The notes beneath the pieces were generated by a model. The model did no database searches and was not told where the DNA came from. It saw only the letters and a list, made by a program, of their open reading frames with translations. From an uncultured Gammaproteobacteria bacterium (GTDB lineage Bacteria > Pseudomonadota > Gammaproteobacteria > SZUA-229): a stretch of 64,000 nucleotides of DNA. The position numbers and the translations under genes are program-made. The stretch lies in NCBI GenBank assembly GCA_963721085.1, contig CAVRHW010000026.1:12302-76301 (forward strand). The letters are read 5' to 3'. This document shows positions 9,026-54,067 of this stretch, piece by piece (within the stretch, counting starts at the first letter, position 1; each line of letters begins with the position of its first letter).

Positions 9026-10060
<1,035 letters not shown>

Positions 10061-10180: not shown

Positions 10181-10951
10181 TTGGACGATCAAACACCGCT
10201 GAATCCCAATAAACCGCGACGTCGTGGTATTTATCTGTTGCCCAATCTGCTCACCACGGGTGGCCTGTTCGCGGGCTATTACGCCATTGTTGCGGCCATG
10301 GCCGACAAGTTCGAGCAGGCCGCGGTGGCCGTGTTCATAGCCATGATCCTGGACGGTCTCGACGGTCGGGTTGCACGTATGACCAATACCGAATCGGCCT
10401 TTGGTGCCGAGTACGACAGTCTGGCGGACATGGTGTCTTTTGGCCTGGCGCCTTCTCTGGTCATGTATGAATGGTCGCTGTCTTCATTGCATCAGTACAG
10501 CTGGCAGTGGGGCAAGCTCGGCTGGCTCGGCGCCTTTGTTTATGCAGCGGCTGCCGCTTTGCGCCTGGCGCGCTTTAATACCCGTGCCAGTAGCACTGAC
10601 AAGCGTTATTTTCAGGGCCTGCCCAGTCCGGCAGCGGCTGCGGTGGTGGTCGGTCTGGTCTGGGTGTTGTTCGATCAGAGAATACCGGGCCGTGATGTGG
10701 CGTTTATTGCGCTGCCGGTGACGATCATCACCGGCCTGCTCATGGTCAGCAAGATTTCATACTACAGTTTCAAGGATATCGATCCGAATAACCGGGTGCC
10801 TTTTTTCGGTATGTTGATCGTGGTGCTGGTATTTGTTCTGGCAGCGATTGATCCACCCAAGGTGCTGTTCGGTTGTTTCTTCCTGTATGCGCTGTCAGGC
10901 CCGGCTTTGAGTGCCTGGCGTTACCGGCGCAAGCACGTGGCTAAAGATTGA
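10181..10951 (+). CDS. pssA: CDP-diacylglycerol--serine O-phosphatidyltransferase
   Basis: CDP-alcohol phosphatidyltransferase motif DGLDGRVARMTNTESAFGAEYDSLADMV. Multi-pass membrane protein. Confidence 0.85.
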   Translation: MDDQTPLNPNKPRRRGIYLLPNLLTTGGLFAGYYAIVAAMADKFEQAAVAVFIAMILDGLDGRVARMTNTESAFGAEYDSLADMVSFGLAPSLVMYEWSLSSLHQYSWQWGKLGWLGAFVYAAAAALRLARFNTRASSTDKRYFQGLPSPAAAAVVVGLVWVLFDQRIPGRDVAFIALPVTIITGLLMVSKISYYSFKDIDPNNRVPFFGMLIVVLVFVLAAIDPPKVLFGCFFLYALSGPALSAWRYRRKHVAKD

Positions 10952-21701: not shown

Positions 21702-21733
21702 GTCATCCCCGAGTGTTTGTGTCGGGGATCCAT
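21702..21733. repeat. GTCATCCCC...GGGGATCCAT hairpin repeat, adjacent to element copy 1
   Basis: GTCATCCCCGA-gtgtttgtg-TCGGGGATCCAT. The same hairpin family occurs at 44020-44052, 45197-45227 and 41521-41595. Confidence 0.7.
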
Positions 21734-21774: not shown

Positions 21775-21964
21775 GGGCGAGTTACTTTTTCTCTACAGCA
21801 ACAAAAGTAACCAAAAAACGCCGCCCTACACAACTTGCCCTTCGGGTTCCCGATCCACAGCACTTTGCTAACGCGCCGGTTTGACGCGCTGTCCTGCGCG
21901 CAAACCTGAATCAGGCGTCCTGCCTGATTCGCGCTACCAAAGTGACTGTGGCTCGGCAAGCTGT
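21775..21964 (-). ncRNA. structured RNA candidate, copy 1 (divergent) of a three-copy family
   Basis: Same architecture as the copies at 44066-44301 and 45283-45479, with compensatory stem changes. Hairpins GAAUCAGGC-AGGAC-GCCUGAUUC and GGUUUG/CGCGC-AGGACA-GCGCG/CAAACC. Confidence 0.6.
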
Positions 21965-22048
21965 AAGGGGGAATTTAAAAACGCTTTTTTTAGAAATGTA
22001 ATAAATAAAGGTGGTGGAGGAAATCTATGGCTAACGTAACTTTATTTG

Positions 22049-22438
22049 TTAGCTACTGACTACAGCGCCAATTAATTTAAACAAATTAAAAAGGTTATAA
22101 AATGTGCAGGCAATTTCGAAGTAGCCGCCGAAATCTTCGACGACATCTCCGAATGGGCCTAATATGCTGAAACTGCCGCGATATTTTTCAGCACGATCCT
22201 CTATAACTGCCGTCATTACATCCGCAATGCTGCCAAATATATTTCCAAAATTGTCTTCAGCTTCGATTTCTAGATCAAGGTTATTTGATTTAAGAAACAC
22301 AAAAAACTCAAACATAAGAAAGAATATAAATACAAAGCCAATTCCAGGGTATACAGTATCCTCTAATATTTTGGGGCTACTCAGGTTTACATTTGCCAGG
22401 GCATAAGTGCATATCGCTATTAATATTGCTCGTATCAC
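22049..22438 (-). CDS. small membrane protein of unknown function (AT-rich islet)
   Basis: 129-aa ORF with N- and C-terminal hydrophobic segments. Confidence 0.5.
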   Translation of the reverse strand: MIRAILIAICTYALANVNLSSPKILEDTVYPGIGFVFIFFLMFEFFVFLKSNNLDLEIEAEDNFGNIFGSIADVMTAVIEDRAEKYRGSFSILGPFGDVVEDFGGYFEIACTFYNLFNLFKLIGAVVSS

Positions 22439-24009: not shown

Positions 24010-24215
24010 CTAAAACCTGAAAGCAAAACCTGAAAAATTTGAACCACAGAGGCACAGAGAACACAGAGGAAACACAATTACTGTTAAAAGCTTTTACCCC
24101 AGAAATCTTTTCTCGGCGTCGTCTGCGTCTCCGCGGCTTCGCTTTATGGTTTTTTTTAACCCAGAAAGGTTTTCTCCGTGTTCTCTGTGCCTCTGTGGTT
24201 CAGCTTTTCTGTTTT
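24010..24215. repeat. MITE-like inverted-repeat element (CCACAGAGGCACAGAGAACAC family), copy A
   Basis: 32-nt arms at 24041-24072 (GAACCACAGAGGCACAGAGAACACAGAGGAAA) and 24170-24201 (its reverse complement with 2 mismatches). It abuts the valS stop. Confidence 0.8.
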
Positions 24216-33244: not shown

Positions 33245-33679
33245 ATGCAAGTAATGGCTAGACCAAAAAAAGCAACATCTAAAAAGAAGACAACTGCGAA
33301 ACGTGCAGTCAAGAAAAAGACCGCAACAAAGAAAAAAGCAGTAAGAAGAAAGGCAGCTCCGAAACGCAAAACTGCAAAACGCAAAGTGGCCAAGAAAAAG
33401 ACCGCCAAGCGTAAAGTAGCCAAGCGTAAGGTTGCCAAGAAGAAAACCGCTAAGCGTAAGACTGCGAAGCGTAAAGTAGCCAAGAAAAAGACTGCCAAGC
33501 GTAAAATAGCCAAGAAAAAGACTGCGAAGCGCAAAGTAGCCAAGAAGAAAACTGCCAAGCGTAAGACTGCGAAGCGCAAAGTAGCCAAGAAGAAAGCGGC
33601 TCCCAAGCGTAAAACAGCCAAGCGTAAGACAGCCAAGAAAAAAGCTACACGGAAGAAAAGAACGACCGCCAAAAGATAA
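33245..33679 (+). CDS. histone-H1-like Lys/Ala-rich repeat protein
   Basis: 144 aa made almost entirely of AKRKVAKKKT / AKRKTAKRKVAKKKT units. The underlying DNA is a 30/45-nt tandem repeat at about 33300-33660. Confidence 0.75.
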   Translation: MQVMARPKKATSKKKTTAKRAVKKKTATKKKAVRRKAAPKRKTAKRKVAKKKTAKRKVAKRKVAKKKTAKRKTAKRKVAKKKTAKRKIAKKKTAKRKVAKKKTAKRKTAKRKVAKKKAAPKRKTAKRKTAKKKATRKKRTTAKR

Positions 33680-41367: not shown

Positions 41368-41647
41368 TTTTCACCACAGAGACACGGAGAACACAGAGGA
41401 AAGCGTTTTTGGGGTAAAAGCAAAGGCTAAAGCGAAAGACAAAAAATTTTCACCACAGAGACACAGAGAACACAGAGTAAAAGCAAATATATTTGTTAAA
41501 ACACAGTCGCACTCTAGTTCGTCATCCCCGCGAAAGCGGGGATCCATTGGTTTATATCAAGGAAGACACTGGATTCCCGCTTTCGCGGGAATGACACACC
41601 AGGAAATAAGATGTTTTCTCCGTGTTCTCTGTGCCTCTGTGGTTCAA
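41368..41647. repeat. MITE-like repeat cluster (same family as 24010-24215), copy B
   Basis: Direct arms at 41368-41402 and 41447-41482 (TTTTCACCACAGAGACAC(G/A)GAGAACACAGAG..). Inverted arm at 41614-41645 (TTTTCTCCGTGTTCTCTGTGCCTCTGTGGTTC, identical to the arm at 24170-24201). Confidence 0.8.
41521..41595. repeat. pair of inverted GTCATYCCCGCGAAAGCGGGRATCCA hairpins nested inside the MITE-like element
   Basis: GTCATCCCCGCGAAAGCGGGGATCCA at 41521-41546 and its inverted partner TGGATTCCCGCTTTCGCGGGAATGAC at 41570-41595. Confidence 0.75.
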
Positions 41648-41700: not shown

Positions 41701-43955
41701 ATGACTGACCAGACCAAAATTGATTTTGAGCACATAGAACAGCAGCCGATGTCGGTGTTCACCGAGAGGGCCTATCTCGATTATTCGATGTACGTGATTC
41801 TCGACCGCGCCTTGCCGTTTATTGGCGATGGTTTAAAACCGGTGCAGCGGCGCATTATTTACGCGATGTCCGAGCTGGGTCTGTCGGCCGGCACCAAGCA
41901 TAAAAAATCGGCGCGCACCGTCGGTGACGTGCTGGGTAAATACCATCCCCACGGTGACAGCGCCTGTTACGAAGCCATGGTGCTGATGGCGCAGCCGTTT
42001 TCGTATCGTTATCCGCTGGTCGATGGCCAGGGCAACTGGGGTTCGCCGGACGATCCAAAATCCTTCGCTGCGATGCGTTACACCGAATCGCGGCTCGCGC
42101 CCTATGCCGAAACCTTATTGAGTGAACTGGGGCAGGGCACGGTGAAATGGACGCCGAACTTCGACGGTTCGCTGGAAGAACCCGAATGTTTGCCCGCGCG
42201 TTTGCCCAATGTATTGCTCAACGGCGGCACCGGTATCGCGGTGGGTATGGCCACCGATATTCCACCGCACAATCTGCGCGAAGTCGCCAGCGCCTGTGTG
42301 CATTTGCTGGATGATCCCAAGGCCACGCTCGCCGATATTTGTAAACACATCAAGGGCCCGGATTTTCCCACCGAAGCCGAGATCGTTACGCCGCGCGCCG
42401 ATATCAAAGAACTGTACAAAACCGGCCACGGCAGCATTCGCCAGACGGGCGCGTTACGAAATCGAACACGGTGATGTGATCATCACCGCGCTGCCGTACC
42501 AGGTCTCGGGCAATAAAATCCTGGAACAGATCGCGCAGCAGATGCTGGCGAAAAAACTGCCCATGGTCGAAGACCTGCGCGATGAATCCGATCACGAAAA
42601 CCCGACCCGCCTGGTGATCGTGCCGCGCTCCAACCGGGTCAACATCGACGAACTGATGAACCATCTGTTCGCCACCACCGATCTGGAACGCAGCTATCGC
42701 GCCAATCTCAATATGATCGGCATCAATGGCAAGCCGCAGGTGAAAGACCTGCGCAGCCTGCTGGAAGAATGGCTCAAGTTCAGAACCGTCACCGTGCGCC
42801 GTCGTCTGCAATGGCGGCTGGATAAAATTACCGCGCGCCTGCACATCCTCGAAGGCTTGCTGGTCGCGTTTTTGAATATCGACGAAGTCATTGCCATCAT
42901 CCGCGAAAACGACAAACCCAAACCGGTGCTGATGAAACGCTTCAAGATCACCGACATTCAGGCCGAAGCCATCCTCGAATTAAAACTGCGCCATCTCGCC
43001 AAACTCGAAGAAATGAAAATTCGCGGCGAGCAGGAAGAACTCGACGCGGAACGCAAATCACTGGAAGCGCTGCTGGCTTCGGCCAAACGCCTGAAAACCC
43101 TGATCCGCAAAGAAATCATCGCCGATGCCGAAAAATACGGTGATGATCGACGTTCACCCATCGTTGCACGCGAAGCTGCGCAGGCGATGTCGGAAACCTC
43201 GTTGATTTCCAGCGAAGCGATCACGGTTGTGTTATCCGCCAAAGGCTGGGTACGCGCGGCCAAAGGCCACGAAGTCGATGCCGCCAAACTGGGATACAAG
43301 TCGGGCGACTCCTTGCTCGCCACCGCCCAGGGCAAAAGCAATCAGCTCGCGGTGTTCCTGGATCGCAGCGGACGCGCTTACACGCTTGCCCGCGCACAAA
43401 CTGCCATCGGCGCGCGGCCAGGGTGATCCGCTCACCAGTTATTTCACCCCGCCTTCAGGCGCGCAGTTCGTGTCGGTGGTGATCGGTGAACCGGATGAAA
43501 TGCTGTTGCTCGCGAGCAACTTCGGTTACGGTTTTGTCGCCAAACTCGGTGATCTGCACGCGCGCAATAAAAACGGCAAGGCGATACTCAATGTCGGCAA
43601 GCAGGCAAAAGCATTACAGGCGGCAAAAATTTCCGATCTCGACAGCGACCGCATCGTCGCAGTCAGTTCGGAAGGCCACATGCTGGTCACACCCGTCGCC
43701 GATCTGCCGCAGATGGCCAAAGGCAAGGGCAACAAGATCATCAATGTGCCTTCGGCCAAACTCAAGTCCGGTGAAGAACTCATCACTGCGATGACCGTGG
43801 TGCCGGCCGAATCGAAACTGGTGGTGCACAGCGGCAAGAAGTTCAAGCAGATGAAACCGGCAGAGCTGGATGCGTTTGCAGGGGAGCGTGGGCGGCGTGG
43901 GCTGAAGTTACCGCAGGGCTATCGCAATGTGGACAGGTTTGAGGTGACGGATTAA
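41701..43955 (+). pseudogene. parC: DNA topoisomerase IV subunit A interrupted by two 1-nt insertions (about 42440 and 43388)
   Basis: Three consecutive +1 frames: 41701..42474 (..[16 protein letters not shown]..), the part of 42209..43426 from [30 protein letters not shown].., and the part of 43227..43955 from [19 protein letters not shown]... Colinear with ParC as I recall it. Confidence 0.9.
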
Positions 43956-44019: not shown

Positions 44020-44052
44020 GTCATCCCGGTATGCTTTTTAGCCGGGATCCAT
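44020..44052. repeat. GTCATCCC...GGGATCCAT hairpin repeat, adjacent to element copy 2
   Basis: GTCATCCCGGtatgctttttagCCGGGATCCAT. Confidence 0.7.
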
Positions 44053-44065
44053 ATTTTTAATCATT

Positions 44066-44097
44066 CAAAATCTAAAAGCGCGGGTGGTTGACCCGCA
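44066..44097 (-). terminator. Rho-independent terminator (minus strand) at the end of element copy 2
   Basis: Minus strand reads GCGGGU-CAACC-ACCCGC followed by GCUUUUAGAUUUU. Confidence 0.6.
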
Positions 44098-44301
44098 GCA
44101 AGTCACTTTATTTTGCTTGCCCAAAGAAAAGTAACCAAAAGAAACGGCACCCCAACAGCTTGCCCCATGTAAAAAACACATGGGGTTCCCATGTCACAGC
44201 ACTTCGCTAACGCGTCGTCTCGATGCGCGTCCTGCGCACGAGACTCAATCGGGCGTCCTGCCCGATTGCCGCTACCGAAGCACTGCGACATGGCAAGCTG
44301 T
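44066..44301 (-). ncRNA. structured RNA candidate, copy 2, with its own promoter and terminator
   Basis: Minus-strand fold: P1 ACAGCUUGCC/GGCAAGCUGU; a 16-bp P2; hairpins CAAUCGGGC-AGGAC-GCCCGAUUG and GUCUCG/UGCGC-AGGAC-GCGCA/CGAGAC; hairpin CCCCAUGU-GUUUUUU-ACAUGGGG; a U-run; hairpin GUUACUUU/AAAGUGAC. Terminator at 44066-44097. Confidence 0.65.
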
Positions 44302-44307
44302 AAGGGG

Positions 44308-44336
44308 ATTTTAAAAACGCATGTTTTCAGAAGCAA
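44308..44336 (-). promoter_or_regulatory. sigma70-type promoter of RNA copy 2
   Basis: Minus strand: TTGCTT (44336-44331), 17-nt spacer, TAAAAT (44313-44308). The predicted start falls at the first base of P1. Confidence 0.55.
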
Positions 44337-44389
44337 AAACAAACAACTTATGCCGTCACGCCAGTATTTTTTTTGTTTTATGTTCAGTA

Positions 44390-44719
44390 TCAGGCAGCTT
44401 TTGATCTGGTAGAAATGGCTTTTGCCAGGTCTTTTTGCGAAGCGCCCAGTGCCAGCAAAGATTTGATGAGAAGATCGATTGAAACCGATGCGGCACCGGT
44501 CTCCATTTTCGCCACTCTGGACTGGCTGGATTTGATCATTTTTGCAAAAGCATCCTGACTCAAACGTTTACGTTTTCTCAACTCTTTAAGGCTGTGGCTC
44601 AGAGACATTTTCATTTCAATGAATGTTTCTTCTTCAGGAGTCAGGCCCAGGAAATCAGCAGCTGTGCCAACCTTCCAGCCTTTTGCTTCCAGCTTTTTAC
44701 GTTTGGTCTGTTTCATCAT
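44390..44719 (-). CDS. higA: HTH (XRE-family) antitoxin, HigA-like
   Basis: 109 aa: LSQDAFAKMIKSSQSRVAKMETG helix-turn-helix. Overlaps the toxin gene by 23 nt and lies downstream of it. Confidence 0.75.
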   Translation of the reverse strand: MMKQTKRKKLEAKGWKVGTAADFLGLTPEEETFIEMKMSLSHSLKELRKRKRLSQDAFAKMIKSSQSRVAKMETGAASVSIDLLIKSLLALGASQKDLAKAISTRSKAA

Positions 44720-45038
44720 AATCTCTCAATCTGTCTTTACATACATCGATGACATTTTTAGGTGTTTTAGCGGTTTTCTTTTCAAACACTTCAAGAATGA
44801 CTATTGCATCGGTATCAATTCTGTACACGATTCTCCATGTTACATTTCTATCTGTAATCCGAAGTTCATGGCACCGTTTTCCAATGACAGGCATTGGCCT
44901 GGATTGCGGCAGGCTTAATATCTCGCCAATTTGCAGCTTTCGCAGCAGAAAGCCAGCCTCAATACGGGCTGCAGGAGAAAAGGGAGGTGTCTTTATCTCA
45001 CCATGCAGCCAGACAACAGCCTTGTCTATTGGATCCAT
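44697..45038 (-). CDS. higB: RelE/ParE-superfamily toxin, HigB/Gp49-like
   Basis: 113 aa: VVWLHGEIKTPPFSPAARIEAGFLLRKLQIGE ... CHELRITDRNVTWRIVYRIDTDAIVILEVFEKKTAKTP. The toxin-first order is typical of higBA. Confidence 0.75.
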   Translation of the reverse strand: MDPIDKAVVWLHGEIKTPPFSPAARIEAGFLLRKLQIGEILSLPQSRPMPVIGKRCHELRITDRNVTWRIVYRIDTDAIVILEVFEKKTAKTPKNVIDVCKDRLRDYDETDQT

Positions 45039-45196: not shown

Positions 45197-45227
45197 GTCA
45201 TCCCGATACGCTTTTTGTCGGGATCCA
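45197..45227. repeat. GTCATCCC...GGGATCCA hairpin repeat, adjacent to element copy 3
   Basis: GTCATCCCGAtacgctttttgTCGGGATCCA. Confidence 0.7.
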
Positions 45228-45282: not shown

Positions 45283-45479
45283 CGACTTTATTCTACAGCA
45301 ACATAAAAAGTAACCAAAAAAATGCCGCCCAAACAGCTTGTTCCATGCAAACAACGCATGGAATTCCCATGTCACAGCACTTCGCTAACGCGTCGTCTCG
45401 ATGCGCGTCCTGCGCACGAGACTCAATCGGGCGTCCTGCCCGATTGCCGCTACCGAAGCACTACGACATGGCAAGCTGT
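45283..45479 (-). ncRNA. structured RNA candidate, copy 3
   Basis: The core is nearly identical to copy 2. One P2 substitution (C to U on the minus strand) converts a C-G pair to U-G. Hairpin C is replaced by UUCCAUGC-GUUGUUU-GCAUGGAA. Confidence 0.6.
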
Positions 45480-45637
45480 AAGGGGAGTTAAAAAACGCGT
45501 GTTTTCAGAAGCAAAGATTGACAGCATTAATCTGCAGCCCAAGCTTTGGGGTTGGTAAAATCGTTATATCATTAAACCTTCACAAACAAGTCTCAGAGGG
45601 TTAAAGTTCCTTCTCATGCTTGTGTTAACCATAAGGA

Positions 45638-46073
45638 ATGTGTGCAGTGGGCCAGAAAACAATTAACAAGATAATTAGACTTCCACTCTATTTGCTAATC
45701 GCTGTATGCCTATATTCGTGCTCATCCAATATCGCGCCTCCAAAACCTCCGTATAGCTTAAGCTATCAGTTCTATACTGATAAAAACTATCAATATGTGT
45801 ATCGCTTAATCTTGAATAATGCTGACGCATGCTCAAAACAAGGCGTGATCTCAAAGTCTATTGCTGAAGGACAGCATTACAGTGATATAAAAGCGGGTGA
45901 TATATCAATTTCACTACGTGCTCCCTTTTGGGACATACACGCATATACGTGTAAAAATAGATACTGAAAACGGAAAAACAAAAGTATCAGTTTCAAATGA
46001 CTTCGAAGCCTGGGATGAGCTTGCCAAAGTTATTAAAGACTGGGTTGAAAATGAAACAATGTTTTGTCGATAA
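45638..46073 (+). pseudogene. small lipoprotein, probably extended by a frameshift near 45925
   Basis: Track ORF 45638..45967 has a lipobox (LYSCSS). The +1 frame stays open for 47 more codons in AT-rich DNA (..RVKIDTENGKTKVSVSNDFEAWDELAKVIKDWVENETMFCR) up to the TAA at 46071-46073. Confidence 0.45.
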
Positions 46074-46225
46074 GGCGAGATAATAATATGTTAAAAAAAG
46101 ACGGATTTATTTACACAAACGTTATGGCTACGAAAAATAAGACTGTCCCCATTAATTCATTGATTTATGTATCCCCGAAAACCCGGTCTTCGGTCTAATA
46201 CACAGTTAGGTAAAAAAGAGAAACC

Positions 46226-47086
46226 ATGCCTGAAAGTAATTCGCTAATAAATTTAGGTGATTTATCAAAGCCAGCAACTGTTTTGATAAAAAAAATATCT
46301 AATGCTATTGGCGTATTATATGAACCAAAACGCATTAAGAGTAAAGCAAAAGCAGTGGCTGAAGCGGATAAAATTAAAGCGTTAGCACAAATAGAAATTA
46401 GCGATATTGAACGCAGAGCATTTGAGCGTCTAATATATCAAGAAGGTCGAAAGCAAGAGAATATTGAAAGTATTACTGCACAGGCAGTGCAGGAGCTATT
46501 ACCTGAAGCCGAAGTTGAAGCACTAGAAGAAGATTGGCTCATCCACTTCTTCAAAAACTGTGAATCAATAACAGACAAAGAAATGCAATCTTTATGGGCT
46601 GCTTTATTAGCCAGGGAGGCATCAAAACCAGGGGTGATCTCTAAAAGAACCATTAACTTTATTACCTCCATGGATAAAAAGGATGCCGAATTGTTCACTA
46701 AGCTCAGTCAATTCGTATGGCTGATGGGTGATGCGCTTCCGCTAATTTTTGATGAATATCACAAAATATATAATAATGAAGGGGTTGATTTTAGCGCTCT
46801 TAAGCATTTAGATGATATAGGTTTAATTTCATTTGAGCCATTAGGTTATAAACGAATTAATTTAGATCAACATGCGCAGCTGTACTATTTTGGCGCACAT
46901 GTAAGAATTAAATTTAATAAAGCTCGTGATAATGAGCTTCAAACTGGTAAGGTTGTTTTTACACAAGCAGGCAAAGAATTATTTCCAGTGTGTGGCGCTA
47001 AGAAAAATAATAAGTATTACAAATATGTAATCGATAATTGGTCTAAACAAGGTTATGTGTTATCTGAAACATCGCCTAAGGAATAG
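46226..47086 (+). CDS. DUF2806-like protein
   Basis: 286 aa. The N-terminus LINLGDLSKPATVLIKKISNAIGVLYEPKRIKSKAKAVAEADKIKA resembles the DUF2806 family as I recall it. Not verified. Confidence 0.5.
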   Translation: MPESNSLINLGDLSKPATVLIKKISNAIGVLYEPKRIKSKAKAVAEADKIKALAQIEISDIERRAFERLIYQEGRKQENIESITAQAVQELLPEAEVEALEEDWLIHFFKNCESITDKEMQSLWAALLAREASKPGVISKRTINFITSMDKKDAELFTKLSQFVWLMGDALPLIFDEYHKIYNNEGVDFSALKHLDDIGLISFEPLGYKRINLDQHAQLYYFGAHVRIKFNKARDNELQTGKVVFTQAGKELFPVCGAKKNNKYYKYVIDNWSKQGYVLSETSPKE

Positions 47087-47277
47087 GTATTGGAATTCTG
47101 TAGAATTCTGGGGACACGATGCTTAATTCCGGCACCGCCGGAATGAAATTCTTTACTTTTGTTTCTGAGAAGTGCGCTTGTAATTCCCCTAATAATAGGG
47201 GACAGACCACGTTTTTCGGATAAATCCATTTAATAAACGTGGTATGCCCCTAATATTTAAGCAACCGAGAGGCTGTC

Positions 47278-47738
47278 GTGAAATTCCGTTTGAATCATGA
47301 ATACATGAGCGAGAGCTACGACCAATCTCGGCGCTATGGTAAACTTTCTTCTCATTGAAAGCATTACTGGTTTCAGTTTCGTCTTTCTTGGAATAGGGCT
47401 TTATATCTATGTAAATGGTAAAACTCTAATACCGTTCGTGCTTATCGCAATTGGCATGTTCGAGTTATTCAGTAATCGCATAAAGAAGTATTTTTGGCTT
47501 CGTCGTCATTCAAAGGGCAAGCTAATGAATGCCGAGATCGAGCTAGAAATTTCGGACGTCAGGGATTGATAGTGCTGGGCCTTTCTCCAATGGGCACTTT
47601 GAATGGAATGGCATTGAAAAGGTAATTCGCACACCAAAAGGCATTCTTGTGTGGCCGCAGAAAGGAATGTATTGGTATATTCCTGAAAGCATTGCAGGGA
47701 AACAAATAATTGATTTCATACAAGAAAAAGTTTCTTAA
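47278..47738 (+). pseudogene. YcxB-like membrane protein split over three frames
   Basis: (V)KFRLNHEYMSESYDQSRRY, then VNFLLIESITGFSFVFLGIGLYIYVNGKTLIPFVLIAIGMFELFSNRIKKYFWLRRH.., then GIDSAGPFSNGHFEWNGIEKVIRTPKGILVWPQKGMYWYIPESIAGKQIIDFIQEKVS. Shifts lie near 47335 and 47560. Confidence 0.5.
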
Positions 47739-47854
47739 CCAGCCGCTTGTTCGAGCGCAAACTAGAAAACCGGGGTCAAACCCCAGTTTTCGCTAATATT
47801 GCCAAGTTGACACATGCGGAATAAATAGGAATAGAAATGTGACTGAGGGATTAA

Positions 47855-49027
47855 ATGATGTTCAATTCTAAAATATGGTCAATGGATAACTTATTCGCCG
47901 TCTTTTTTCGTCCGATTCTGTACATTGCTTTGTTCATGTGCGTGGCATGTGCCAACACTTGGGCTGCAACGATTGAACAGCAAACTATCAACCACCTGAA
48001 TCATATTAGAAATATAAAAACTGATATGGGTGCGGAAGCTACTAAGGTATATAACAGACAGATGGACGATGCCTGGCGATTCTTCCAGAAGAATAAGGCA
48101 CAGGTTCTCCCTGTTTTGCGTGGTCAGCTCAAAACCGAGTTGAAGAGTAGCAAGCCAAACGATTTAATTCTTCTCGATATCGGGTACTTTGTGTATCAGA
48201 ACGATGGAGCAGAGGGCAAAACGATCGGTGCAGATGCTCTTTCAAAGTTGAATCCTGGCGCCAAAATAGTTCAGGCAAATTACAGGGAGCTGTTTGACTT
48301 CGCATATGCCATGGCACGAGATCATGACTCACGTGTATTGCCCATAATTGAAAGGAACTTCCTTCCATCAGACCAGGAAATTTTCATACCTCAACACGCT
48401 TTAAAACTGGACGGCACGCTCATTTGTGTGTTTTTGTATGGCACATATGGACCCGAGTCTGAGGATATTCTGCGCGCTAAACTTGTGGACAAACCGGTCA
48501 GGCGCAGGGCATTAGAACTTTTAGTATGGCTTGGTTCGCCTGCATCGCTTCCTGATGTGCGGAATGTCCTGGAGTCGTCACCCGATTATGAAACGTTTTT
48601 ACGTGTCACTTCCTATATGATGCGGGCGGCTGGCCCCGCTGGTCGTACCTTTATGCTTGGTTTGTCACCGAAAACTCTTGATACTCAGTCACGTCGATAC
48701 CTTGCAAAGATCCATTCGGCAATCCAGGAGACCTCATTTGAATCTATAAAGGCTTCATTGGCGCGGGTCCCTGGTGATAAAAACCTGTCAGATGCCGAAG
48801 TGAAAGCGCGTCTCAGTGCTATGCTAAAAAACTATGGTAAGGATGATCGTACGAGTCCTGTGGCAATTCTGAATTCCGGTCTACCATCGGAGTATCTCAT
48901 TAACATGCTCATGAAGATTCGCAGTCGCATATTGTACCGTTTGTCAGATGAAGGACTCGGCGATGTAGAAGTAACCAATTTTCTTATCAATGCTCTACGT
49001 TACCGAGAGAAGAATAAAGCTCGATAA
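47855..49027 (+). CDS. secreted protein of unknown function
   Basis: 390-aa ORF with an N-terminal hydrophobic signal ending ANTWAAT. Largely helical-looking. No motif recognised. Confidence 0.55.
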   Translation: MMFNSKIWSMDNLFAVFFRPILYIALFMCVACANTWAATIEQQTINHLNHIRNIKTDMGAEATKVYNRQMDDAWRFFQKNKAQVLPVLRGQLKTELKSSKPNDLILLDIGYFVYQNDGAEGKTIGADALSKLNPGAKIVQANYRELFDFAYAMARDHDSRVLPIIERNFLPSDQEIFIPQHALKLDGTLICVFLYGTYGPESEDILRAKLVDKPVRRRALELLVWLGSPASLPDVRNVLESSPDYETFLRVTSYMMRAAGPAGRTFMLGLSPKTLDTQSRRYLAKIHSAIQETSFESIKASLARVPGDKNLSDAEVKARLSAMLKNYGKDDRTSPVAILNSGLPSEYLINMLMKIRSRILYRLSDEGLGDVEVTNFLINALRYREKNKAR

Positions 49028-49071
49028 AGGCGACGGGGGATTAAAAGACAGCTCCTCCATCATCATTTTCA

Positions 49072-49344
49072 GTGCGAGTGGATATGGACATATTACAGGT
49101 AAAATGTGGGCACTGTGGTGCGATTGCAAATCATGCAGGGCAGTGTACTTATTGTCATAAAGACCTGGGTAGTGTATCTAAAGCTATAATGTCTGCTGCT
49201 CTTGCTTCGTTTGCCTTATCTCTCATCTGGATAGGCATAGCTGTTATTTTTCAGATTGAGTTCGCATGGATTTCTATGACTTTTGGACTACTGATCAGCG
49301 CTGCCGTAATTGTATTTTCACGTGGTTCGGGTCCTAAGTATTAA
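49072..49344 (+). CDS. zinc-ribbon protein with two TM helices
   Basis: CGHCGAIANHAGQCTYC followed by two hydrophobic helices. Same architecture as 22505..22879. Confidence 0.5.
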   Translation: MRVDMDILQVKCGHCGAIANHAGQCTYCHKDLGSVSKAIMSAALASFALSLIWIGIAVIFQIEFAWISMTFGLLISAAVIVFSRGSGPKY

Positions 49345-49380
49345 GAAAGGGGACGCTAAGAAAGGGGACGCTACCCTTTA

Positions 49381-49962
49381 ATGAAAAAATGTGGAGAGAA
49401 TTCAGCATTGAAGCCGTTTAAAACATTCTTATTTATTTTTCCGCTTACAATTTTCTCATCTGTCTCTAACGCTGCATCTGGTTATATCGATGTCGGGATA
49501 CATTTTGGAGGCGCAAAAGTTGACAGAATTCAACTTGCAGGCGGCAATGGTGGTACCGATATTACCTCTGGTGAAGTGCTTTCTGCCTCGCTTGGCGCAT
49601 TATTCCGGCCAACGCTTAATACTGACATACAAATTGGGGGCGGGAAACGAAGCAACACGGCTGTGGGTCAGAATGGTGATGTAACATGGCAATCATATTT
49701 TCTTGAAACCTCGGCCCATTACATTATCAGGAATTTTCGTCTGGGCGGTGGCCTGCAGTATTATATAAACCCTGAATTACGTGGCGGAACCACTGATCGA
49801 AACTTCGATAACTCCATAGGCCCTTTTGTTTCATGTGAACTAGAGGTTTATCAAGGTCTTTATGCGGGATTGAGACTAACGCACGAAAAGTACCAGGATT
49901 CAGCAACAAAGGAGATTGTGTCGGGCAGTACTATTGGTGTTACTCTGACTTTAACATATTAG
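49381..49962 (+). CDS. outer-membrane beta-barrel protein
   Basis: Signal peptide, alternating beta-strand pattern, and a C-terminal ..GVTLTLTY aromatic terminus. Confidence 0.6.
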   Translation: MKKCGENSALKPFKTFLFIFPLTIFSSVSNAASGYIDVGIHFGGAKVDRIQLAGGNGGTDITSGEVLSASLGALFRPTLNTDIQIGGGKRSNTAVGQNGDVTWQSYFLETSAHYIIRNFRLGGGLQYYINPELRGGTTDRNFDNSIGPFVSCELEVYQGLYAGLRLTHEKYQDSATKEIVSGSTIGVTLTLTY

Positions 49963-49988
49963 CCCGGAATAAAAGGGTTCGGTGACAA

Positions 49989-50609
49989 ATGATAATCACT
50001 TATAAGGGAAAGCATATGAAACTGTTAAAAATATCAGGACTGGTCTTTAGTATCGCTGTCATCGTGTCTTGCGTTCCTATGCGGCGCATGCCCGAAATGA
50101 AGCTTCCTCCGGAACCCATTGCATTATCTGATTACTATTTTACCCCGTTAAATGAGCGGGGCTGGGTTGAGATTGGCGAGAATGCGTACAATGTGGCACT
50201 GGTTAAGCAAGGAAAAGAAAAGGATGAAACGTATGCTATCCAGACTATGCGATTTAAATTACCCGCGTTTAAGAACCAGGCAGACTTTGTTCGCCTGATA
50301 AAGAGTGGTCAGGCGGCAGATACCAGCTCGACACGTTTCACAGTCATAAAACATGATGTAACTGACTATACAAGGCTAAAAAGTAATTGCGCTATATCAA
50401 ATATGGTAACCAAAGACCATAACGCCATTAAGCGATCGGGAAAAACTGGAGATATGATACTGGAAGCGCTTGTGCTTACCTGCGCACTCCCAAAAGATAA
50501 GAGTACAGGTATCGGTGTTGTCTATTCACACAGATATTATCCGGGCCACAATGATAGTGACTTTGCAGAAAAAGGCATGACCGTCTTGAGTAGTGTTAAA
50601 TTTCAATAA
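49989..50609 (+). CDS. lipoprotein of unknown function
   Basis: MKLLKISGLVFSIAVIVSC lipobox. The start is probably the internal ATG at 50016. Confidence 0.55.
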   Translation: MIITYKGKHMKLLKISGLVFSIAVIVSCVPMRRMPEMKLPPEPIALSDYYFTPLNERGWVEIGENAYNVALVKQGKEKDETYAIQTMRFKLPAFKNQADFVRLIKSGQAADTSSTRFTVIKHDVTDYTRLKSNCAISNMVTKDHNAIKRSGKTGDMILEALVLTCALPKDKSTGIGVVYSHRYYPGHNDSDFAEKGMTVLSSVKFQ

Positions 50610-50702
50610 AGAGATAGAAGAACATCCAGGCTAGATATAAGTTTTTGCTAATACTTTAGATGGAACTGGTATCTGATCCACGATTCTATAAGGGAGAAGA
50701 TT

Positions 50703-51582
50703 ATGTTTAAACGATTCATAGATGGAATGGTTTTTGGTGCGGGGTTTAGTGCGGCATTTGTTGTGGTCTGGACTGTTGCGATTTATTATATTTTACCCGG
50801 CGTTATTGAAAAGAGAATTCACTCCGCAACTTCTGGCGGAATCCATGAAGCAGGCCATGAAATACGTACCGTTCCTGCAATAAATCTGCCTGATAAATTT
50901 CTTGATACAACCAGCGTTACCTCGGGTGATTTCAAAAGAGGAGGTGGTGTTCTCGCTGGCGGTAACGGCAGGATAATAGGTGGAGCAAGTGCTAATGGAA
51001 AGCCCGTGTCGGGATTAAAATTCGGCTGGCATTGAACGGTAGTGTATATAGTCAGTGGGCTACTACTGATGGTGAAGGAAAATATGCTGTTCATGTCCCA
51101 TATGGCGAGTACGTCATAAATGGTTATGAATTTGATCAGGAAGCAGCTGACAAATATCTGGCCAATAAAATTATTTCTCCACAAAGTTCATATTCGAGCA
51201 GCAGATTTAAGGTGTCCTCGGCGTCTACTGGACGCGGGCTGGATTTTCGATTTATAAACCCGGTTATCAAGAAGTTCAAAAGCAATATATTCAAGAATGG
51301 TGATGACGTCATACTTGAATGGGAGGATTATCCGGGTGCGTCAACATATACCGTTCAGGTACGTGAAAAGCCGGATCCTTATACATGGAGCAATGTGACA
51401 CTTTTAAATGGTCGGAAAGGCCGGAGGTGCTAGAGCCTCGCATAAACCTGAAAGATTATGATGTGCATTTAACGCCAGGGAAGTATTACTCTGTGGAAAT
51501 TACCGCCAAAGGAAAAGATAAAGAAATACTATCCAAAAGTGCGGATATTTATTCTGGGTATGATTTCGAGATTGTTAAATAA
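50703..51582 (+). pseudogene. membrane-anchored protein with carboxypeptidase-regulatory-like and Fn3-like domains, split by two 1-nt deletions
   Basis: TM helix (50703 frame). Then GKPVSGLKIRLALNGSVYSQWATTDGEGKYAVHVPYGEYVINGYEF (shift near 51017, in an A-run). Then ..LEWEDYPGASTYTVQV.. and DTFKWSERPEVLEPRINLKDY.. (shift near 51395). Confidence 0.5.
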
Positions 51583-51821
51583 TATGGAAGCATGAATTAA
51601 AGGGGTCGGTACGCCATTGAGTATATAGATGCCAGCGCCGATTGTGACGAAATTGACTCTGGTATTTCAGGCCAAAGTTTCATATGATTCGAAAGGACGG
51701 GCTGGGATTCGATCCCGATTTATATGTTGCAGAGCTGCTCACTACTTGTTCCGCTAGTTGTTTATTGGGATTGAGCGTACTACTGGAACTTGCTCTCGAC
51801 AGGATATCAAGGAGGCTGGTA

Positions 51822-51964
51822 TGGGCAGATTCAATCTTAGGCGTGTTTACGTTCTTGCGGTTATCCTCGCGCTGACACTGCCTGCAGTCCAGTGTGCTGG
51901 AGACAGTTCATCAAGTTCATCGAATAGAGCCACAGTGAATGTTCATGCGGTGGTTCTGAAATGA
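51822..51964 (+). CDS. small lipoprotein
   Basis: MGRFNLRRVYVLAVILALTLPAVQCAGDSSSSSS has a lipobox. Its stop overlaps the next start (ATGA). Confidence 0.4.
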
Positions 51965-54067
51965 AAATGCCAATATGCCTGTCTTTGGTTCTTCTGGTGT
52001 TCAGCTTTTTGGCTCGTGCCGCCACCAACGAGGCCAGCTTTACGCCCGATAGCATCATCAAGCCAATTTTCGAAGTGGGGCTGGCCAATTCAACAAGCTC
52101 GACTCGCTCGGCACTTTATACCTGTTCAGGCACGACTCCCGGTGAGTGTGAAGTAGAAATCACAAACCAGGCCGCGCTCAACGCGCTGTTTGCGGGTGCT
52201 TCGGTTGCTCCAGGAACTTACGACCAGATGTATGTACGGCATTGTACAACCGGGACGGGTTACACCGCCAGGCTGCGTGGCAGCGTTTCAATTGGGGCGG
52301 TGCCGACAACTTATTACACGACTTCGGGTGCGGACCCGCTATCGACTTCCAGTGCCAGTCTTGATTATGTAACGGTTCCTTATCAGGGCTGCGAGACGAC
52401 TTACCATCTGGCAAGTCCGCTCACTGTTTCTGCTGGAGATACAGTCAATTTAAGTCTTTTTTTCTCTCACCTGAATATTGCCTGGGCCCGACTTGGTGCC
52501 GAAACAATTCCCAGTGGCTGTACACAGAACGCTGGAATGACCCAGTCAGTGTGCATGGCTTATCCAGACATTGTTCCTTATGTGGGCAGCAACACGCCAA
52601 CTCTGGAGCGGTACTATGTGATTGAGGACTCTGTCGTCAATCCCACTTTTGAGTCTGTAGGGGCGATGGTGTTGCTTGTGACTGATTCGGTCACGGGAAA
52701 TGTGCTCGCTGGTTTTACCCGGCGTTTATTTAGTGACAGCTCTGTTCCGCCTTCGGCGAACTATGATACGCCACTGAAGCAGATCACAGATAATCATGAT
52801 GGAACCTGGCGCCTTGAGAACTATGGATCGACGGCCACCGGGACCGGCTATATTGTCTTCCCCGCTTTCCGGAGAAGCAGTCATGCTTCATCATATCTAA
52901 CAGAAAGCGGAACCTCGATTGCGTATCATGCCTATCGAGACATCAATTCAGAACTGGATTCCTGCCCTTCGGGACCTCTTTTCACTGCTTATCCCATCAC
53001 AGTGGATACCAGTGGAACACCGACCATGACAGAATTTGTAAGCATGACGCCGCTTGGAAACCTGAACCCTTCCAGCCATGTGTTTCCGACCGACCATATG
53101 TACATCAATGTGAATGAGGTCGGTGGTGTACCGCAGACCGGCCATGTCTATCTGCCGGGGGATGCCTATGTCACCCAGATGGAACAGAAGTCGTACACTG
53201 CAGGACCGCTTACAGGTGTTACGGAATACAAGGTAGGGTTCAGTTCGTGCAAAGAGTTTTCGTTCTACTTTGATCACCTGGAGTCGCTGTCTACAGATCT
53301 TCAGACGATCTGGGATGCCAATGGACCCGCAACGGATTGTCAATCCTATACAACCGGGCCCAGTACGCTTACCACCTGTTCGATGTCGATGAAGTCCTAT
53401 CTCACGGCAGGCACTTACATGGGAACAGCTGGAAATCCTGCTGGAATTTATGGCGTAGATCTGGGCGCGCATGATTCACGCGTGACACCCATCGTATTCG
53501 CTAACAATGCACGCTATGGTTCGTCACCAGATGGAATGGATCGGATGCATACGGTTTGCCCGATTGATTACTTCGATACTTCAATGAGGGATACGCTGAG
53601 GACTTTCTTTAAAGCCTGGGACGGAACACCGAGAACAGCGCCTCCGGTCTGCGGAACGATTGATCAGGATCTCGCTAGCACAGTTCAAGGAAACTGGTTT
53701 GAAACACCAGACTCAACTTTCTCCCCTGAAGATCCAAATCTTGCTCTTGTACATGACAATATTCGATCCGAGCATTCCTGTGTTTTCGGTGGGAACAACG
53801 CTGACAGGACTTCCAGGTGGCGCTTACCGATTTGTTCCCTCAGCAGGAACGACTAGCCAGGTGAATCGAGATTTTGGACTGGTCACCGACACAGGCATTT
53901 ACTGCTATGAAAATCTAACCGATGGCAGCACCGCTGTGGCCAACACCGTAATCCTGTTACAGAGAACCGATCCGGACACGCTCACTATCGAGAAGCAATC
54001 GGCCAGCAACTGCGCAGCACTTGCTACTCCATGGGCCTTTAGTTCGCCTCTCACGTATACCCGCTGA
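51961..54067 (+). pseudogene. large (about 700 aa) secreted protein of unknown function with one frameshift near 53765
   Basis: Signal MKMPICLSLVLLVFSFLARA. The 51961..53856 frame is continued in the +1 frame by DPSIPVFSVGTTLTGLPGGAYRFVPSAGTT... up to 54067. Confidence 0.55.

Follow-up and report, generated by a model that had tools for sequence, protein, structure and literature searches.

We analyzed a 64-kb stretch (hereafter the window) of contig CAVRHW010000026.1 from the assembly GCA_963721085.1 of an uncultured gamma-proteobacterium, in which a structured element occurs in three copies on the minus strand, at positions 21807–21969 (copy 1), 44131–44306 (copy 2), and 45310–45484 (copy 3). 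There is little doubt in our view that each copy is a small non-coding RNA gene of the TwoAYGGAY family (RF01731), present here in a composite gamma-proteobacterial form. A covariance model (R1) was built from seven close copies, and both strands of the window were searched with it with the filters switched off. Exactly three matches were obtained, all on the minus strand and at the places where an initial annotation had put the three copies of the element, with scores of 140.7 bits (copy 1), 211.7 bits (copy 2), and 202.5 bits (copy 3); the plus strand reached a maximum of 22.6 bits, and nothing else exceeded 14 bits. The matched ranges of copies 1 and 3 comprise the body and the first pyrimidine tract of a 3' module, which is degenerate in copy 3.

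Structure of the element

The body of copy 2 (44155–44301; minus strand, as are all parts of this copy given below) consists of the closing stem P1 (ACAGCUUGCC / GGCAAGCUGU), the stems P2 and P3, twin hairpins, and a hairpin C. P2 and P3 together count 23 pairs, 12 of them with compensatory change. Hairpin 1 (CAAUCGGGC-AGGAC-GCCCGAUUG, 44246–44268, loop at 44255–44259) and hairpin 2 (GUCUCG-UGCGC-AGGAC-GCGCA-U-CGAGAC, 44217–44244, loop at 44229–44233) are separated by 1 nt, carry their AGGAC loops on stems of 9 bp and 11 bp, and covary at 6 of 9 and 5 of 11 pairs, respectively. The two loop GGA are 26 nt apart and a third GGA is found at the junction, in the GGGAA (44186–44190) between P2 and hairpin C, which is invariant in the close copies and reads GGAAC in Aeromonas. 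In relatives, hairpin 1 shows compensatory substitutions and its loop varies from AGGAC to AGGA or CGGGA, so the GGA is the constant loop feature, and across all variants (AGGAC, AGGA, CGGGA, AUGGAU, and AGGGAC) it is the only one that is kept.

P1, P2, the twin AGGAC hairpins, the GUAGCG and GCGUUAG stretches, a U-run, and a GUUAC hairpin had been drawn in the initial annotation and were all found as drawn, with GGA displayed in the AGGAC loops of all three copies as it had stated. Two details hold in part. The variable hairpin C (44163–44185), which had been assigned to all copies, is present in copies 2 and 3, while in copy 1 it is reduced to a stub of 3 bp, and the GGGAA, described as single-stranded, may be partly paired: because the two C that follow P1 can pair with its first two G, P2 may extend up to 18 bp, leaving GGGAA only partly single-stranded.

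Downstream of the body, pyrimidine tract 1 (GUUUCUUUU, 44137–44145), which is the U-run of the initial annotation and a candidate Hoogsteen strand of the 3' module, is followed by an A/U-rich hairpin (UUAC-UUUUCUUU ... AAAAUAAA-GUGA, 44102–44134), the candidate Watson-Crick duplex, with a 2 × 2 internal loop in copy 2. The A/U hairpin of copy 1 is located at about 21781–21811 (minus strand). Further downstream, copy 2 has a terminator-like hairpin (GCGGGU-CAACC-ACCCGC followed by CUUUUAG, 44072–44097), which is common to two related copies (L010a and L010b); the terminator scan called this hairpin and its U-run at 44097–44079, as had been proposed earlier, and among the three window copies only copy 2 has a called intrinsic terminator.

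Upstream of copy 2, a –35-like hexamer TTGCTT (44331–44336; 3/6 match to TTGACA) and a –10-like hexamer TAAAAT (44308–44313) are separated by a 17-nt spacer, and a start 7 nt downstream of the latter would be A44301, the first base of P1. The hexamers are kept as TTGYTT and as TAATAT, TAAAAC, or TAAATT in relatives, and a 40-nt promoter-like block is kept in all paralogues; the earlier claim that copy 2 has its own promoter is plausible. Two observations count against such a promoter, namely that TTGCTT-17-TAAAAT (44336–44308) agrees with just 8 of the 12 sigma-70 consensus bases and was not called in the promoter scan, and that the outermost pairs of the fold, P0 (CCC/GGG), are invariant and would lie upstream of the proposed start.

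Over 332 nt, copies 2 and 3 share 83.7% identity, and copy 1 is about 74% identical to either of them, the differences including compensatory changes. The minimum free energy of copy 2 is –125.4 kcal/mol vs. –81.1 ± 4.4 kcal/mol for shuffles (z = –10.1). Covariation was evaluated in an alignment of nine sequences, of which three were the window copies, five came from two metagenome/ENA contigs, and one from Aeromonas; this alignment was fitted to the model, which favors the structure somewhat. Standard pairs occupied 96.2% of the pair cells and changes on both sides were seen at 34 of the 63 pairs, values reached by none of 500 shuffles, and sliding the partners by 1–3 columns left pairing at only 32–44%. 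Since G-U cells outnumber A-C cells 35 to 2, the folded strand is the minus strand, in accordance with the functional form proposed in the initial annotation; P2 alone has three G-U pairs in copy 2 and four in copy 3, in line with the earlier description. Moreover, the copies differ by indels of 1, 1, and 14 nt, which excludes a shared reading frame, and a protein-coding reading was rejected because these indels disrupt the frames; the frames of the overlapping open reading frames (ORFs) had already been noted as unconserved. Taken together, the data support the copies being a minus-strand structured RNA, neither a protein-coding nor a DNA-palindrome feature. Every helix is kept among the paralogues despite only 74–84% identity, the paralogue types are common to the window and a related metagenome organism (loci L010 and L013), and the window copies are maintained and not recent.

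Assignment to TwoAYGGAY and the composite form

A default gathering-mode Rfam scan of the window found none of the three copies, the match being visible only in relaxed-filter scans of short stretches. The full RF01731 model, with a gathering score of 43 bits, matched copy 1 at 44.3 bits, copy 2 at 37.4 bits (44182–44300, E = 8e−4), and copy 3 at 36.6 bits, i.e., copies 2 and 3 (E ~ 1e−3) are about 6 bits below the gathering score. The novelty implied by the initial annotation was not borne out by this Rfam check: the element is not new, because it matches a known family, and within that family it lies at the margin of the RF01731 model.

In their 2010 study, Weinberg et al. reported TwoAYGGAY from the human gut, Clostridiales, and gamma-proteobacteria as two hairpins with AYGGAY loops inside an often very long P1, and judged it to be probably an RNA, not cis-regulatory, and not tied to a gene class (PMC2864571). 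The window copies resemble it in their two adjacent GGA-loop hairpins, a similar junction, the gamma-proteobacterial taxa, and an enclosing stem of variable and often large size (P2 and P3 in the window), but they differ in having 5-nt AGGAC loops, without the Y before GGA, in place of the AYGGAY hexaloop, and in adding an outer P1 and hairpin C, resulting in a three-way junction. A pattern scan for twin AGGAC loops detected this loop variant in Clostridiales metagenome-assembled genomes (MAGs), with several copies per MAG and some at contig ends, and relatives of the window copies with 84–92% identity on two contigs of one metagenome, where they are clustered, two copies flanking a membrane-protein gene and three copies lying around an outer-membrane-type gene. 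The GUAGC(G) and GCGUUAG junctions are kept from Clostridiales to gamma-proteobacteria. We believe that this AGGAC subgroup is new; the default Rfam scan misses it, and the family is therefore probably under-counted in environmental proteobacteria.

The composite architecture extends to other gamma-proteobacteria. In a BLAST search against plasmid and chromid records, 44101–44157 was the only part of copy 2 that was matched in other genera, and in Pseudoalteromonas and Aeromonas this module stands directly after a TwoAYGGAY (51.3 and 41.5 bits, respectively). Both genera carry P1, P2, the twin hairpins, GGAAC, hairpin C, and the 3' module. The Pseudoalteromonas members, which score 51–65 bits against RF01731, have an architecture in common with the window copies, and the element of Aeromonas, to which that of the window aligns end to end, is detected by R1 with 55 bits. 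The part of the Weinberg alignment considered here contains 21 Psychromonas ingrahamii accession lines at three per sequence, i.e., at least 7 sequences, and within this part some seed members are only 2–9 kb apart and five of the five inspected have, after the body, the same 3' module as the window copies (pyrimidine run, GG, A/U-rich hairpin, UUAC...GUAA base). Pseudoalteromonas piscicida holds four TwoAYGGAY genes within 1.45 kb, in alternating orientation and with 38–65 bits, and in some Pseudoalteromonas copies the module is followed by a third AUGGAU hairpin, or two further GGA are present in single-stranded form. The gamma-proteobacterial family is thus a longer composite RNA encoded by clustered multi-copy genes, and we believe its recognition as such to be new.

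Two loci of P. piscicida NZ_CP074588.1, near 556 kb (L025) and 357 kb (L031), are four-gene arrays with two nearly identical repeat units. Another locus, L020, was found by searching the translation of an ORF that overlaps the element, and was the only extra locus gained in this way. An element of ~78 nt (10336–10413) is inserted there within the 3' tail of a copy and a second one is located 400 nt upstream (9900–9990); it carries the GGA-loop hairpins GGCGC-AAGGAU-GCGCC and GGGC-AGGAC-GCCC.

The 3' module and its triple-helix signature

The module occupies 44101–44157, 21775–21820, and 45283–45330 in the window and is also found at the loci L010, L013, and L017–L031. What the initial annotation listed as a U-run and a GUUACUUU/AAAGUGAC hairpin is part of this module, which is conserved across beta- and gamma-proteobacteria and Fusobacteria. 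A BLAST search with a composite query (consensus tracts plus the 3' end of copy 1) yielded 25 records and 308 places in Burkholderia, Paraburkholderia, Ralstonia, Variovorax, Pasteurella, Pseudoalteromonas, Aeromonas, and Ilyobacter (Fusobacteria), with or without an upstream TwoAYGGAY. At least 40 places were recorded per replicon in Paraburkholderia, a different long hairpin forms the upstream "cargo" of the module in beta-proteobacteria, and inverted module pairs flank 320–450 nt in Pasteurella and Paraburkholderia. A 50-kb Paraburkholderia block contained only the two modules already known, and no 3' module was found in E. coli genomes.

Three tracts on one strand form the module: tract 1 (e.g., UUUCUUUU), tract 2 (UUUUCUUU, the 5' arm of the hairpin), and the purine arm (AAAGAAAA). 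A pyrimidine-motif triple helix requires a third tract that is the parallel complement of the purine arm, and tract 1 mirrors tract 2 and is therefore such a complement (U over A, C over G). The three tracts covary in their interruptions, and with the GG linker and the GU base as reference points the register is fixed. In the order purine arm / tract 2 / tract 1, the class of many genera is AAAGAAAA / UUUUCUUU / UUUCUUUU, the left copy of Pasteurella has AAAAGAAA / UUUCUUUU / UUUUCUUU, the metagenome copy L013a AAGGAAA / UUUCCUU / UUCCUUU, Variovorax AAGAAAA / UUUUCUU / UUCUUUU, and the minus-strand copies of P. piscicida AAAAAGAA / UUCUUUUU / UUUUCUU. Copy L013c combines AAAAAAG and UUUUUUC with a tract 2 that does not mirror and has a U-G wobble, Psychromonas copies 3 and 5 have GAGAGAAAA / UUUUCUCUU / CACUCUUUU, from which Psychromonas 2 deviates by one position per tract, and L010a has AAAAUAAA / UUUAUUUU / UUUUGUUU, with a G over a U-A inversion that we take to correspond to the known G.TA triple.

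The statistics were based on 11 distinct classes, all from outside the window. Triple-compatible positions amounted to 80 of 88, compared with 60.1 ± 3.0 in permutations of tract 1 (0 of 50,000 reached 80), and shifting the register by 1 or 2 lowered the typical score from 8/9 to 3–6. The two ends of the Pasteurella pairs differ in class and are each internally consistent, which argues for a constraint within the module and not for long-range pairing. A Watson-Crick alternative, with tract 1 taking part in a shifted hairpin, is possible for tracts with a single interruption and was rejected, the offset being different per class (–1 to –5) with runs of 5–7 pairs. The strand that shows G-U wobbles at the hairpin base is also that of the TwoAYGGAY RNA. 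By symmetry, a purine-motif triplex could be formed by the other strand.

Three-way covariation of this type would be expected only for a triple helix. It is possible, though on balance we find it doubtful, that the module is a major-groove helix of 8–9 U.A-U / C+.G-C triples in RNA, with the strand order Hoogsteen, pyrimidine, purine, and acts as a built-in 3'-end stabilizer, a bacterial counterpart of the ENE triple helix of viruses and eukaryotes that would serve TwoAYGGAY as well as other structured RNAs of beta-proteobacteria, Pasteurella, and Fusobacteria. The window modules weigh against this, as they are imperfect (6/8, 6/8, and 5/8 triple-compatible positions): that of copy 1 is uninformative (U6 over A5), and that of copy 2 has an L010a-type purine arm together with consensus pyrimidine tracts, so that both pairings are broken at two positions.

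In its predicted fold, the module shares with the ENE triple helices (KSHV PAN, MALAT1, plant and fungal transposon ENEs) the U-rich Hoogsteen, U-rich Watson-Crick, and A-rich strands, an interspersed C+.G-C triple, and a place near the RNA 3' end, but it has three contiguous strands, no poly(A) tail, and a bacterial host. With the bacterial intrastrand DNA triplex repeats TMECO/BoxC it has in common three consecutive tracts on one strand, a multi-copy and intergenic occurrence, and sometimes inverted pairs (Hoyne and Maher; Holder et al. 2015, PMC4666352); TMECO, however, is G/C-rich, of the purine motif (class II), and was studied as DNA, whereas the module is A/U-rich, of the pyrimidine motif, and attached to a structured RNA gene. 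In the scheme of Holder et al. 2015 it would belong to class IV, the rarest one (4%), and neither the module nor its hosts are mentioned in that study (PMC4666352). A review of RNA triple helices from August 2026 lists no bacterial example beyond riboswitches and group II introns (PMC13541005), and we believe the triple-helix signature of the tail to be new. The Burkholderia module is antisense to the aceF-lpdA operon: on a Burkholderia cepacia plasmid (L022, 1232–1343), the Rfam family Bp1_684 matches with 118.8 bits between aceF and lpdA, in antisense, starting inside the purine arm of the module. A transcript of Bp1_Cand684 (RF02421) was detected by reverse transcription PCR in B. pseudomallei (PMC3521395). 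This family differs from the window element in the lack of a TwoAYGGAY body, and it spans the region after the module, not the module in its entirety.

Neighboring genes and repeats

A toxin-antitoxin pair (44390–45038, minus strand) is situated between copies 3 and 2, outside the RNA, with a Gp49/HigB-like toxin (44697–45038, minus strand; PF05973, 1.1e−11) and an HTH_3 antitoxin (44390–44719, minus strand; PF01381, 1.2e−10). The module of Variovorax paradoxus CP063167.1 (L026, ~174.1 kb) is likewise found beside an annotated HigB toxin and a regulator, echoing the HigB-like/HTH pair of the window.

REP-like hairpins (GGATCCCGG...CCGGGATGAC at 44020–44050, minus strand, after copy 2) had four matches in the window vs. 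0 expected, the others being at 21702–21731 (after copy 1), 45197–45226 (after copy 3), and 41521–41545, the last one without a TwoAYGGAY beside it. The hairpin (GGATCCC(N)...GGGATGAC) was considered as a part of the RNA and is probably not one, being past the terminator of copy 2 and occurring also alone; these hairpins are a separate repeat family, which is probably outside the RNA. The same kind is carried by L020. In the parE-parC spacer an inverted REP-like pair is present, whose second member (41571–41597, GGATTCCCGCTTTCGCGGGAATGAC) has the form ATTCCC-N8-GGGAAT, which resembles the neisserial dRS3 repeats. Short repeats of the type ACCACAGAG(G/A)CAC(A/G)GAGAACACAGAG, both direct and inverted, are found at 24040–24070, 24170–24205, 41370–41400, 41448–41478, and 41612–41645, i.e., in two intergenic regions, with similar strings in L018 and L020. 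An internal direct repeat of ~125–140 nt with 73–79% identity is present at 33307–33643, where the AT skew is strong (0.22).

The parC-like gene (41701–43955) is split over three frames (41701–42474, 42209–43426, and 43227–43955), which reflects either two frameshifts in an essential gene or sequencing errors in the assembly. A stretch of low GC content (45600–52000; 38–45% vs. ~52%) starts right after copy 3 and encodes a DUF2806/Abi_alpha-like protein (46226–47086) as well as several lipoprotein- or membrane-like ORFs without a Pfam match. This stretch is possibly a genomic island with its edge at the RNA cluster.

Possible function and alternative explanations

Transcription of copy 2 would proceed on the minus strand, with its start near 44301 under a weak promoter of the sigma-70 type and its end at the terminator near 44072, giving an RNA of ~230 nt. 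In the fold shown by covariation, a long irregular helix (P1, P2, and P3) holds the twin hairpins side by side with their A-GGA-C pentaloops, which may provide two half-sites for one RNA-binding protein dimer, most likely CsrA/RsmA, and several gene copies together could titrate this protein from its mRNA targets. Judging from relatives, the 3' module of intact members would fold into a U.A-U / C+.G-C triple helix by the 3' end, most plausibly stabilizing the RNA against 3' exonucleases. We put forward a CsrA/RsmA dimer as the partner of the twin loops, with multi-copy titration, only tentatively, at somewhat less than even confidence.

The CsrA dimer has two identical GGA-binding surfaces, and a loop spacing of 26 nt on a rigid scaffold suits one dimer bridging both sites (dual-site CsrA binding). 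ANGGAX on a stem is a high-affinity RsmE/CsrA site and A-GGA-X a weaker natural form, seen in SL3 and SL4 of RsmZ (PMC4005645); the window AGGAC is an A-GGA-X sitting directly on the stem, and the AYGGAY of the family equals the ANGGAX consensus. Gene dosage is high: the 64 kb studied here hold 3 copies, Psychromonas has at least 7, and P. piscicida has 4 within 1.45 kb. TwoAYGGAY belongs to the Rfam clan CL00106, which we take to be the Csr/Rsm clan. The idea of CsrA binding by TwoAYGGAY was already published as an untested hypothesis by Gardner and Eldai in 2015 (PMC4333381), and a literature search found no follow-up of it. Four observations weigh against a CsrA decoy: the ~230-nt RNA of copy 2 contains 3 GGA vs. 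~3.6 expected by chance at uniform base composition; no GacA/UvrY box (TGTAAG-N6-CTTACA, ≤ 2 mismatches) was found upstream of the window copies or of those at L010, L013, L017, L019, L020, L025, and L031; the 64-kb window contains no csrA gene, a CsrA of the host being assumed; and a 27-bp helix with conserved GUAGCG and GCGUUAG is more elaborate than a sponge needs. Known Csr/Rsm sponges contain 5–22 GGA. As a candidate CsrA binder, the window RNA is similar to CsrB, RsmX, RsmY, and RsmZ in its loop GGA of A(N)GGAX type and in having multi-copy genes in some lineages, and it differs from them by its only three GGA, the absence of a GacA/UvrY box, and the long rigid helix.

In a rival explanation, the twin loops could bind a protein dimer other than CsrA, or pair with GUCCU/UCCU, e.g., in the anti-Shine-Dalgarno region, an explanation that would fit the long helix, the GUAGC(G) and GCGUUAG junctions kept from Clostridiales to gamma-proteobacteria, the tandem G-A pairs reported for a stem of the family (PMC4333381), and the chance-level GGA density without a GacA box. 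On the other hand, the flanking genes differ at every locus and suggest no other candidate protein, and it is the ANGGAX consensus of CsrA that the family loop equals. We consider a non-CsrA partner rather unlikely.

The mobile-element alternative stays in play because of the behavior of the 3' module in other phyla, although we regard it as unlikely. Here the element would itself be a mobile or recombinogenic repeat of the non-autonomous kind, or a derivative of one; the module would be its end or recognition structure and form an intrastrand DNA triplex in single-stranded DNA, and the RNA fold would serve the element and not the host. The module occurs without TwoAYGGAY in Burkholderia, Paraburkholderia, Ralstonia, Variovorax, Pasteurella, and Ilyobacter, its inverted pairs surround 320–450 nt in Pasteurella and Paraburkholderia, and it adjoins higBA in Variovorax; copies are found at contig ends in Clostridiales MAGs and flank single genes or a toxin-antitoxin pair (window, L010, and L013), and the intrastrand triplex repeats TMECO of E. 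coli form inverted pairs and were linked to genome rearrangement (PMC4666352). The window copies themselves argue otherwise, as they are 74–84% identical with compensatory changes instead of near-identical, have no terminal inverted repeat or target duplication around them (their 5' flank is only faintly like an inverted module), and have neither a transposase or integrase nearby nor a phage match. The G-U over A-C ratio of 35 to 2 and the G opposite a U-A inversion also fit a transcribed strand.

That the copies are cis-acting elements of 3' untranslated regions or terminators, which stabilize or insulate an upstream mRNA and are not independent small RNA genes, appears highly unlikely to us. 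Copy 2 does start 50 nt past the antitoxin stop and copy 1 ~80 nt past the ORF 22049–22438, in both cases on the same strand, and Rfam labels the family as "Cis-reg"; however, no gene lies upstream of copy 3 in the same orientation, since its neighbor is divergent, the 40-nt promoter-like block is kept in all paralogues, and Weinberg et al. judged the family not to be cis-regulatory (PMC2864571). An integron attC array, with the copies flanking a toxin-antitoxin cassette, was rejected, since GGTTAC ... GTAAC is unlike the RYYYAAC ... GTTRRRY core sites and the element has 230–330 nt vs. 57–141 nt; a partial check of the neighboring ORFs scanned found no integrase. Retrons, IS200/IS605 omega-RNA, IS110 bridge RNA, and CRISPR were dismissed, because the vicinity lacks genes for a reverse transcriptase, a transposase, or Cas proteins and none of these RNAs was matched in Rfam up to E = 10, and a phage collection and viral contigs gave no match to the element.

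Conclusions

Three unannotated RNA genes of the window are now given the name TwoAYGGAY. If the helix of the 3' module were confirmed at the RNA level, bacterial non-coding RNAs would have their first described case of a long U.A-U triple helix that stands alone, and the module would represent a simple, portable RNA-stability element. The clustered multi-copy composite form sharpens the CsrA-decoy hypothesis into a concrete binding question, and if the TwoAYGGAY arrays are CsrA sponges in lineages like Pseudoalteromonas, Psychromonas, and Aeromonas, the function of the family, open since 2010, would be settled.

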